NCBI RefSeq assembly: GCF_003334255.1
Contig: NZ_QOWU01000108.1
Source: Escherichia coli
GTDB lineage: Bacteria; Pseudomonadota; Gammaproteobacteria; Enterobacterales; Enterobacteriaceae
Length of the DNA: 4,516 nucleotides
Direction: 5' to 3' (one strand)
Shown: piece by piece, positions 1 through 4,033 of the stretch
Layout: each line of letters opens with the position of its first letter
How positions within the stretch are numbered: the stretch's first letter is position 1
Notes under the pieces: generated by a model
What the model was told of the DNA's origin: nothing
Databases searched by the model: none
The model's input: only the letters and a program-made list of their open reading frames with translations
Position numbers and translations under genes: made by a program

Positions 1-117
1 CTGGCGGCAGTAGCGCGGTGGTCCCACCTGACCCCATGCCGAACTCAGAAGTGAAACGCCGTAGCGCCGATGGTAGTGTGGGGTCTCCCCATGCGAGAGT
101 AGGGAACTGCCAGGCAT
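1..117 (+). rRNA. rrfB: 5S ribosomal RNA, 3' 117 nt (5'-truncated by about 3 nt at the window edge)
   Basis: Sequence from ctggcggcagtagcgcggtggtcccacctgacc to gggaactgccaggcat matches the E. coli 5S rRNA as I recall it, minus the leading tgc. It is followed immediately by the rrnB T1/T2 terminators, which is the basis for calling the rrnB copy. Confidence 0.93.
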
Positions 118-126
118 CAAATAAAA

Positions 127-164
127 CGAAAGGCTCAGTCGAAAGACTGGGCCTTTCGTTTTAT
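127..164 (+). terminator. rrnB T1 intrinsic terminator
   Basis: Hairpin with arms aaaggctcagtc (129-140) and gactgggccttt (145-156), GAAA tetraloop, one G-U wobble, then cgttttat U-tract. Matches the rrnB T1 sequence widely reused in expression vectors. Confidence 0.9.
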
Positions 165-199
165 CTGTTGTTTGTCGGTGAACGCTCTCCTGAGTAGGA

Positions 200-238
200 C
201 AAATCCGCCGGGAGCGGATTTGAACGTTGCGAAGCAAC
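200..238 (+). other. Two stable hairpins in the T1-T2 spacer
   Basis: 9-bp stem caaatccgc (200-208) / gcggatttg (214-222) with 5-nt loop; 5-bp stem gttgc (226-230) / gcaac (234-238) with gaa loop. Neither is followed by a U-tract. Confidence 0.6.
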
Positions 239-240
239 GG

Positions 241-285
241 CCCGGAGGGTGGCGGGCAGGACGCCCGCCATAAACTGCCAGGCAT
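241..285 (+). repeat. Degenerate partial copy of the 5S rRNA 3' end between T1 and T2
   Basis: GC stem ggcgggc (251-257) / gcccgcc (263-269) followed by taaactgccaggcat, which parallels the 5S terminal helix and 3' end gggaactgccaggcat. The 18-nt string aactgccaggcatcaaat occurs at both 105-122 and 273-290. Confidence 0.6.
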
Positions 286-295
286 CAAATTAAGC

Positions 296-330
296 AGAAG
301 GCCATCCTGACGGATGGCCTTTTTGCGTTT
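296..330 (+). terminator. rrnB T2 intrinsic terminator
   Basis: Hairpin aaggccatcc (298-307) / ggatggcctt (312-321) with 4-nt loop, followed by a T-run and gcgttt. Matches the rrnB T2 sequence as I recall it. Confidence 0.88.
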
Positions 331-405
331 CTACAAACTCTTCCTGTCGTCATATCTACAAGCCATCCCCCCACAGATACGGTAAACTAGCCTCGTTTTT
401 GCATC

Positions 406-409
406 AGGA
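406..409 (+). promoter_or_regulatory. Shine-Dalgarno for murB
   Basis: agga located 8 nt upstream of the ATG at 418. Confidence 0.6.
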
Positions 410-417
410 AAGCAGCT

Positions 418-1446
418 ATGAACCACTCCTTAAAACCCTGGAACACATTTGGCATTGATCATAATGCTCAGCACATTGTATGTGCCGAAGACGAACAACA
501 ATTACTCAATGCCTGGCAGTATGCAACCGCAGAAGGACAACCCGTTCTTATTCTGGGTGAAGGAAGTAATGTACTTTTTCTGGAGGACTATCGCGGCACG
601 GTGATCATCAACCGGATCAAAGGTATCGAAATTCATGATGAACCTGATGCGTGGTATTTACATGTAGGAGCCGGAGAAAACTGGCATCGTCTGGTAAAAT
701 ACACTTTGCAGGAAGGTATGCCTGGTCTGGAAAATCTGGCATTAATTCCTGGTTGTGTCGGCTCATCACCTATCCAGAATATTGGTGCTTATGGCGTAGA
801 ATTACAGCGAGTTTGCGCTTATGTTGATTCTGTTGAACTGGCGACAGGCAAGCAAGTGCGCTTAACTGCCAAAGAGTGCCGTTTTGGCTATCGCGACAGT
901 ATTTTTAAACATGAATACCAGGACCGCTTCGCTATTGTAGCCGTAGGTCTGCGTCTGCCAAAAGAGTGGCAACCTGTACTAACGTATGGTGACTTAACTC
1001 GTCTGGATCCTACAACAGTAACGCCACAGCAAGTATTTAATGCGGTGTGTCATATGCGCACCACCAAACTCCCTGATCCAAAAGTGAATGGCAATGCCGG
1101 TAGTTTCTTCAAAAACCCTGTTGTATCTGCCGAAACGGCTAAAGCATTACTGTCACAATTTCCAACAGCACCAAATTACCCCCAGGCGGATGGTTCAGTA
1201 AAACTGGCAGCAGGTTGGCTTATCGATCAGTGCCAGCTAAAAGGGATGCAAATAGGTGGGGCTGCGGTGCACCGTCAACAGGCGTTAGTTCTCATTAATG
1301 AAGACAATGCAAAAAGCGAAGATGTTGTACAGCTGGCGCATCATGTAAGACAGAAAGTTGGTGAAAAATTTAATGTCTGGCTTGAGCCTGAAGTCCGCTT
1401 TATTGGTGCATCAGGTGAAGTGAGCGCAGTGGAGACAATTTCATGA
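418..1446 (+). CDS. murB: UDP-N-acetylenolpyruvoylglucosamine reductase (peptidoglycan precursor synthesis, FAD-dependent)
   Basis: 342-aa ORF beginning [30 protein letters not shown], recognised as E. coli MurB, which is also 342 aa. Sits immediately upstream of birA as in the known murB-birA arrangement. Confidence 0.95.
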
Positions 1447-3832: not shown

Positions 3833-3917
<85 letters not shown>

Positions 3918-4033
3918 ATTTCGGCCACGCGATGGCGTAGCCCGAGACGATAAGTTCGCTTACCGGCTCGAATAAAGAGAGCTTCTCTCGATATTCAGTG
4001 CAGAATGAAAATCAGGTAGCCGAGTTCCAGGAT

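Follow-up and report, generated by a model that had tools for sequence, protein, structure and literature searches.

The second copy of the 5S rRNA 3' end at the distal end of Escherichia coli rrnB is the hallmark of a tRNA-linked repeat

Introduction

The segment that separates terminators T1 and T2 behind the rrnB operon of E. coli has been described as rrB, one of 22 tRNA-linked repeats (TLRs) of strain K-12 (Stenum et al. 2021, PMC8144298). The family, the recognition of which is credited to Egan & Landy 1978 and Rudd 1999, is conserved in at least 31 species, with the hallmark that the last 18-19 bp of the upstream tRNA or rRNA gene recur identically at the 3' end of the repeat (PMC8144298). 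The 18-bp repeat of rrnB is underlined in Fig. 1A of the same paper, and the segment annotated and deleted there as rrB corresponds, after conversion of coordinates, to approximately positions 177-280 of the DNA analysed here. RrB was detected as a discrete RNA co-transcribed with 5S by northern blot, S1 mapping and cRACE (PMC8144298). Its 5' end lies 3 nt past the mature 5S end, at a known RNase E site (PMC8144298, citing Roy 1983), and its 3' end was placed by S1 mapping 3 nt beyond the second repeat, which is 13 nt past the annotated end; the authors proposed that RNase E recognizes the second copy (PMC8144298). A form of about 115 nt binds Hfq and CsrA in vitro or by pull-down, with a half-life of about 2.5 min, phenotypes of rrB deletion and overexpression are modest, and tRNA-linked TLRs obtained CsrA-binding scores below 0.01 from the predictor used in that study (PMC8144298). 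The efficiency of termination was given as 87% for T1 and 100% for T2 (Orosz 1991, cited in PMC8144298).

An initial annotation, made from the letters of the rrnB distal end, took the second copy for a relic partial duplication of the 5S end and trailer, which might offer an additional processing substrate or simply mark the way in which the tandem terminators arose. Both the second copy, which represents the TLR hallmark, and the processing hypothesis are already published; the 18-bp repeat itself is nothing new, being the defining trait of TLRs since 1978/1999. What can be added to the known rrB is the register of its closing helix, which is that of 5S helix I, the existence of two subtypes of 5S-linked TLRs elsewhere and a presence/absence polymorphism at rrnB. 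The helix I register and the polymorphism, together with evidence for homology of T1 and T2 and with a free-standing module found in other bacteria, bear on the question of how TLRs gain the copy of their host gene end.

Results

The sequence of the window, i.e. the whole stretch of 4,516 nucleotides that was analysed, starts at position 4171640 of E. coli K-12 MG1655 and is identical to it. The window contains the distal end of rrnB and neighbouring genes in the order rrfB-T1-T2-murB-birA-coaA-thrU-tyrU-glyT-thrT-tufB, with only the start of tufB included. Annotation of rrfB in MG1655 (4171637-4171756) puts the end of this gene at window position 117. The features used below are the following.

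1-117, plus strand: rrfB 5S rRNA gene, nt 4-120 of the mature RNA (Rfam 5S_rRNA and MG1655 annotation)
1-115: Rfam match to 5S rRNA, 82.6 bits
105-122, plus strand: first copy of the repeat, composed of the last 13 nt of 5S (105-117) and the trailer CAAAT (118-122)
121-170, plus strand: terminator T1, with a hairpin of 20 bp (121-164) and a U-rich tail behind it (terminator scan, fold)
121-293, plus strand: RrB RNA, 173 nt, processed read-through product (S1 mapping in PMC8144298, coordinates converted)
169-179, plus strand: 5' strand of the predicted closing helix, UGUUUG-U-CGGU, pairing with the second copy in MFE and centroid folds
200-222, plus strand: hairpin A (CAAATCCGC-CGGGA-GCGGATTTG) with GGA in the loop (inverted repeat; compensatory changes elsewhere)
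223-249, plus strand: TLR core motif AACGTTGC-GAA-GCAACGGCCCGGAGGG, hairpins B and C (exact match)
250-270, plus strand: hairpin D (TGGCGGGC-AGGAC-GCCCGCCA), the "GC-rich helix" of the initial annotation (inverted repeat; fold of -19 kcal/mol)
273-290, plus strand: second copy of the repeat, the TLR hallmark, in which 274-277 and 279-284 are the 3' strand of the predicted closing helix
294-329, plus strand: terminator T2, hairpin 298-307/312-321 and a T run (inverted repeat, fold, comparison with rrnG)
418: start of murB, the feature directly after the T1-T2 region
minus strand: coaA
3749-4187: four tRNAs (Rfam)

Both T1 and T2 have the GC-rich hairpin followed by a U tract that is typical for intrinsic (Rho-independent) terminators, with hairpin fold energies of -32 kcal/mol (z = -10) and -22.7 kcal/mol (z = -5.3; T run at 321-325), respectively, and the counterpart of T2 in rrnG is the sole terminator of that operon. 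It was rightly noticed before that T2 (hairpin 298-321 plus T run) stands behind the second copy just as T1 (121-164) stands behind the real 5S end. Positions 106-140 and 145-179 make up a 35-nt inverted repeat with 80% complementarity, which lengthens the T1 hairpin outward. Segment 163-179 could pair with either the real 5S 3' end or the second copy, and an alternative structure is therefore possible in the read-through precursor.

The 18-mer AACTGCCAGGCATCAAAT occurs on the plus strand of the window exactly twice, at 105-122 and 273-290, with all 18 of 18 bases identical, as was originally stated. Chance occurrence was controlled by 200 dinucleotide-preserving shuffles with up to 2 mismatches tolerated, and no match was registered in any of them (0/200). 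In register the similarity runs to 30 nt at 87% identity (105-134 versus 273-302), and positions 286-290 of the second copy repeat the trailer CAAAT, the equivalent of the one belonging to the RNase E site. Over 14 sequences from about ten genera the second copy is invariant, except for a G->A variant of the rrnD type.

A scan of segment 120-420 against Rfam at E <= 10 gave no match to 5S and only a weak match to RtT RNA, which became the lead to TLRs. With 17 bits (E = 0.7, a local match confined to model positions 42-89) rrB stays below the gathering threshold of RF00391 (45 bits), the consensus of which ends in the 3' end of tRNA-Tyr, and the model is apparently of the tRNA-Tyr type. Comparison with the founding 178-bp TLR unit of tyrT gave a score of 29 versus 16.2 +/- 2.3 for shuffled sequences, none of which (0/1000) reached this value, and both units are collinear relative to the terminal copy. 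The core motif AACGTTGC-N3-GCAACGGCCCGGAGGG has one exact match in the window (223-249), with none expected by chance, and rrB contains the sequence shared by the family, AACGTTGC-N3-5-GCAACGGCCCGNAGGG, together with the hairpin that follows it. As a TLR should be, it is located directly downstream of an rRNA gene (rrfB end at 117), on the same strand and in the same operon, and it ends with a copy of the gene end identical in 18 of 18 bases, with the nuance that 13 nt belong to mature 5S and 5 nt to the trailer. With high confidence we thus regard segment 123-290 as the TLR rrB, which adjoins the 5S gene at its 3' end.

A search for extra copies of gene 3' ends revealed 16 of the 22 K-12 TLRs, residing behind lysT, lysW, lysY, lysZ, lysQ, lysV, argV, argZ, argQ, tyrT, tyrV (three copies), rrfA, rrfB and rrfF. 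In all 16 the core is succeeded by a variable hairpin, which about 3 nt separate from the copied end of the local gene, and the core of rrB is common to TLRs behind Lys, Arg, Tyr and Pro tRNA genes. Together with the tyrT comparison and the exact motif match, this excludes that segment 223-270 has no relation to the cores of tRNA-linked TLRs. In contrast to tyrT and tyrV, no TLR was found behind tyrU of the window (3833-4033), where the gene 3' end ATCCTTCCCCCACCACCA is present only once (3900-3917). At lysQ and lysV the TLR lies between two nearly identical copies of the tRNA end and of a complete terminator; in lysQ the duplication comprises 54 nt of exact identity, terminator included. This layout is the tRNA-operon counterpart of T1-TLR-T2 in rrnB.

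Among the other rrn operons of K-12, rrnA and also rrnD, after rrfF, carry the same 168-bp unit, in which T1 is succeeded by the spacer, the hairpins and the copied 5S end, and behind which a T2-type terminator is located. In rrnG the T2-type terminator comes directly after the 5S gene, so that rrnA and rrnG are a filled and an empty site differing by exactly one unit, with the sequence beyond T2 shared. Behind the 5S end of rrnH, of rrnE and of rrfD, CAAATT(A/T)... gives way to other sequence. Specificity of the duplication for rrnB, for which a comparison of the rrn operons had been suggested, is therefore not the case, as rrnA, rrnD and many enterobacterial genera have it as well. The rrfF gene contains a compensated helix I pair (C3U/G117A), the A of which recurs in the TLR copy located 168 nt downstream. 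A paired variant of this type with its matching copy was also registered in Citrobacter, which means that the copy tracks its own gene over long periods.

To look at other species, the core was searched as an exact pattern in one genome per species, giving at least 120 loci, mostly in Enterobacterales. Among the matches listed there are at least 155 cores, 119 of which have a same-strand gene within 420 nt upstream: Lys (33), Arg (31), Pro (31) and Tyr (10) tRNA genes or 5S (14). An exact copy of the upstream gene end follows the core in 105 of these 119 listed cases. Copies of tRNA ends have a median length of 18-19 nt and start in the T-loop, copies of 5S ends always consist of 13 nt plus 0-9 nt of the trailer, the repeat reaches up to 162 nt past the gene, often through the terminator, and species-specific variants of gene ends are mirrored in the TLR copy; all this refers to the matches listed. 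5S-linked TLRs are of two subtypes. The first, found in E. coli, includes T1 and has a distance of 168-169 nt between the copies. The second is devoid of T1, its copies are 136-139 nt apart, its 5' strand GGCAGTT is perfectly complementary to AACTGCC, and at times the 5S gene precedes it while a distal tRNA-Thr or tRNA-Asp gene comes after it. We also observed a module of about 74 nt with three to four hairpins, which contains the TLR core with hairpins A and D and occurs free-standing or in tandem, unlinked to tRNA or 5S genes. Among the matches listed the free-standing form was found in Pectobacterium, Pseudomonas, Marinobacter, Alloalcanivorax and Stenotrophomonas; it has GGA motifs in its loops, and scanning of these loci with Rfam gathering thresholds assigned them to no family.

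In the predicted fold of RrB (121-293; MFE of -87.2 kcal/mol, z = -8.2) positions 169-174 pair with 279-284 and positions 176-179 with 274-277. A closing helix around the core hairpins appears in the MFE fold of every TLR type, and a helix of the same kind is present in the consensus structure of RtT in Rfam. In the established structure of 5S rRNA helix I extends from U1-A119 through G10-C110, and segment 169-179 differs from its 5' strand by U in place of C3, C4 and G7. It is therefore this long-range pairing, 169-179 with 274-284, that is predicted by folding to mimic helix I, and not the hairpin 251-269, to which the similarity had been ascribed. A hairpin does precede the second copy (250-257/263-270), as was noticed, but as a mimic of the terminal 5S helix it was rejected: in other genera its place is occupied by unrelated compensated sequences, and it is also present in elements that have nothing to do with 5S. 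The likeness of 169-179 to the 5S 5' end could be a result of either descent or convergence on the same partner strand.

Over the 14 5S-linked TLRs the closing helix has 84% of its cells paired, while sliding of the partner reduces this value to 25-46%, and five inner pairs (columns 18, 20-23) are formed in nearly all sequences. Since the 3' strand is invariant, two-sided covariation is impossible in the closing helix of the 5S type; for the same reason the shuffle control on this helix alone gave no information, and the slide control was the usable one. Compensatory changes were found in hairpins A and D across the same 14 TLRs from about ten genera. For Lys and Arg TLRs the 5' strand forms on average 5.63 of 7 pairs with its own gene end and 3.99 of 7 if the ends are swapped, with compensatory changes such as CCAAGGAGGAT facing ATCCTCCTGG and GGAAGAT facing ATCTTCC. 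A fixed-offset pairing test applied to all tRNA-linked TLRs did not discriminate (3.04 versus 2.85 of 5), since in the Tyr and Pro types an additional hairpin separates the 5' strand from the core. Judged solely by duplex energy, the 5' arm of hairpin D is an equally good partner for the 18-mer, and the matrix of duplex energies for TLR bodies and gene ends had no discriminating capacity, since the GC-rich body of rrB is promiscuous and the shared ATCC prefix blurs tRNA types. Taken together, fold prediction, conserved complementarity and covariation at the level of the family argue for the predicted closing helix of rrB.

The processing role that the initial annotation offered for the second copy is already the published explanation, which includes both 3' end mapping and the RNase E proposal (PMC8144298). 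With the published 3' end of RrB at 293, 5 nt downstream of the site that corresponds to the first RNase E cut (288/289), strict equivalence of the two cuts is not given. According to the data available, the pathway may be as follows. About one transcript in 8 is reported to pass T1, and cleavage by RNase E 3 nt beyond the mature 5S end gives, as published, the 5' end of RrB at position 121. The second copy would then form with 169-179 a helix that is rich in G.U pairs and has the register of 5S helix I, and this predicted helix would enclose a domain of several hairpins (A-D), the loops of which carry GGA motifs. A second cut, probably made by RNase E in the repeated AU-rich trailer 3' of the closing helix, would release the 173-nt RrB with the published end at 293, which is reported to be trimmed to about 115 nt and then to bind Hfq and CsrA (in vitro or by pull-down). 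T2 would halt leftover transcription ahead of murB. In the predicted loops of rrB three GGA motifs are found, at 209-213, 244-246 and 258-262, and none of the Csr/Rsm families of Rfam matched rrB at threshold. In K-12 csrA precedes the serV-argVYZQ cluster with its three TLRs on the same strand, at a distance of about 315 bp. The T1-T2 cassette with rrB is used in very many expression vectors, so that these plasmids additionally code for an Hfq- and CsrA-binding RNA.

The population of E. coli turned out to be heterogeneous at this locus. When 5,426 complete genomes were searched with window positions 60-520, a query coverage of at least 80% at rrf-murB was obtained for 2,513 of them (~46%), and in the others the locus spans about 293 bp versus 461. 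Thus, in over half of the complete E. coli genomes the rrnB locus is devoid of the 168-bp unit comprising T1, the TLR and the second copy, and any function of the unit at this locus is dispensable. This presence/absence polymorphism is not mentioned in PMC8144298. The shorter alleles were inspected in three example strains. In strain 2018-05-5CC T2 comes immediately after a single copy and the flanks are 100% identical to those of K-12, which makes this locus a precise empty site. O157:H7 NE 1092-2 and IPCEC48 possess just one terminator, in which a hairpin centre of T1 type is bordered by flanks of T2 type; this terminator is 67-78% identical to each of T1 and T2, while T1 and T2 are 58% identical to one another. 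The weak similarity of the T1 and T2 regions has p ~ 0.0085 in a control that preserves base composition only and ignores the common architecture of terminators. Comparison of these sequences suggests that T1 and T2 may be diverged copies of one terminator, and their tandem is most likely a by-product of the duplication associated with the TLR. The idea that the repeat marks the origin of the tandem terminators is hence plausible, given that terminal TLR copies often include a terminator and that the allele of O157:H7 type is intermediate.

Discussion

Based on the data obtained, the duplicated 5S end is very probably a functional end-module of a known repeat family rather than the remnant of a decayed 5S gene. 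How it came into being is a separate question. One may suppose that the repeats are the footprint of a duplicative insertion, i.e. a scar resembling a target-site duplication or an att site and left by a small non-autonomous element that targets 3' ends of stable RNA genes. T1 and T2 would then be two copies of the duplicated target. This account concerns origin and is compatible with the functional explanation. We consider it a tentative possibility, somewhat less probable than not being the case. Several observations are in line with it: one 168-bp unit is exactly what distinguishes filled from empty sites, both for rrnA versus rrnG and for K-12 versus 2018-05-5CC; the left boundary of the duplication is fixed (tRNA position 58/59 or 5S nt 108), while the right one varies up to 162 nt; 54 nt together with the terminator are exactly duplicated at lysQ; the copy follows variants of the local gene; the core is also found free-standing and in tandem in the five genera named above; and the single terminator of O157:H7 is intermediate between T1 and T2. 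However, neither an integrase nor a transposase is present beside the element, murB being directly next to it, and the ends of the 168-bp insert have no terminal inverted repeats, so that features expected for an integrative element or a transposon scar were not found. Duplications of 18-160 bp far exceed ordinary target-site duplications, empty alleles could equally well arise by deletion between direct repeats or by gene conversion among rrn operons, and the 58% identity of T1 and T2 has its p-value from a composition-only control.

An extended version of this scenario, which we regard as unlikely in its entirety, would derive TLRs including rrB from an uncharacterised type of duplicative insertion. 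It would start at a fixed point in the 3' part of a stable RNA gene (T-loop of tRNA, nt 108 of 5S), copy a variable length of the downstream sequence, in some cases together with the terminator, and install the common core of three hairpins with the strand complementary to the copied gene end; T1 and T2 would be diverged copies, the core would originate from the free-standing tandem module of about 74 nt in gammaproteobacteria, and turnover would continue in E. coli. If it is true, the rrB unit is still in motion, as rrnB is filled in about 46% of genomes and the unit is precisely absent from the rest.

Much less can be said in favour of a decayed second 5S gene, comparable to rrfF in rrnD, which would have arisen by partial tandem duplication and of which 251-290 would be the surviving 3' helix and end. 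The 18-mer is indeed identical to the 5S end with its trailer, rrnD does have a real second 5S gene, and segment 169-179 resembles nt 1-11 of 5S and pairs in the register of helix I. Nevertheless, alignment of 60-125 with 225-295, by which extended homology to the 5S helix would have become visible, recovered solely the repeat (21 nt). The 5S body (1-104) gave with 123-272 a local score of 14, which is at the level of chance (15.0 +/- 2.3 in shuffles), an anchored global alignment of the 45 nt upstream of each copy had p = 0.64, and Rfam detected no 5S in 120-420 at E <= 10. Homology expected of a pseudogene or partial duplicate beyond the terminal repeat, in helices II-V or upstream of nt 108, is therefore lacking. 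The interior is instead represented by the TLR core, which is also found behind Lys, Arg, Tyr and Pro tRNA genes and free-standing, and hairpin D varies freely in other genera. Thus, what stood of the supposed relic partial duplication is a genuine duplication of the 3' end and trailer, while its interpretation as a relic of the 5S gene had to be abandoned because 5S homology upstream of the 18-mer is absent; we find this origin very improbable. Chance, an artefact of cloning or assembly or a feature peculiar to the K-12 rrnB clone may practically be dismissed: although the unit is missing at rrnB-murB in more than half of complete genomes, no shuffle (0/200) reproduced the repeat, the identical arrangement exists in rrnA and rrnD, at least 2,513 independent complete genomes have the unit at rrnB, and it occurs in about ten other genera.

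Comparison with known systems

Integration into tRNA genes reportedly also leaves identity blocks, the attL/attR pairs of tRNA-integrated elements with a sublocation in the T-loop, of which Williams is said to have written in 2002. Unlike these elements, the TLR insert has only 100-180 bp and no integrase, and a pre-formed attP copy is no explanation for TLRs, as one and the same core occurs behind a variety of genes, 5S among them. A duplication of 5S sequence in the distal part of an rrn operon is likewise known from rrnD, where Duester and Holmes reportedly found in 1980 the second 5S gene (rrfD-thrV-rrfF); but rrfF is a complete functional gene, whereas just 13 nt of 5S are duplicated at rrnB.

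As an RNA, RrB resembles 3'ETS-leuZ in its RNase E-type release from the trailer of a stable RNA (discussed in PMC8144298). 3'ETS-leuZ, in contrast, is not a TLR, has no copy of a gene end and functions as a base-pairing sponge for RyhB and RybB. Reminiscent of RNAs of the CsrB/CsrC/RsmZ type are the GGA motifs in the predicted hairpin loops of RrB and its binding to CsrA, reported in vitro (PMC8144298). Compared to CsrB it has far fewer sites, about ten-fold lower affinity and no dedicated promoter. Closer is RtT RNA (Rfam RF00391), encoded by the 178-bp repeats of tyrT-tyrV, which has the same core of hairpins B and C and a closing helix with the copy of the gene end as its 3' strand, although the upstream gene of rrB is 5S rather than tRNA-Tyr, and rrB additionally contains hairpin A and T1. 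Complete correspondence is found with the TLR rrB of Stenum et al. 2021 (PMC8144298), described there along with the sRNAs RrA, RrB and RrF: the locus, the repeat, the position between T1 and T2, the core and the 173-nt RNA all agree, and it is the same element.
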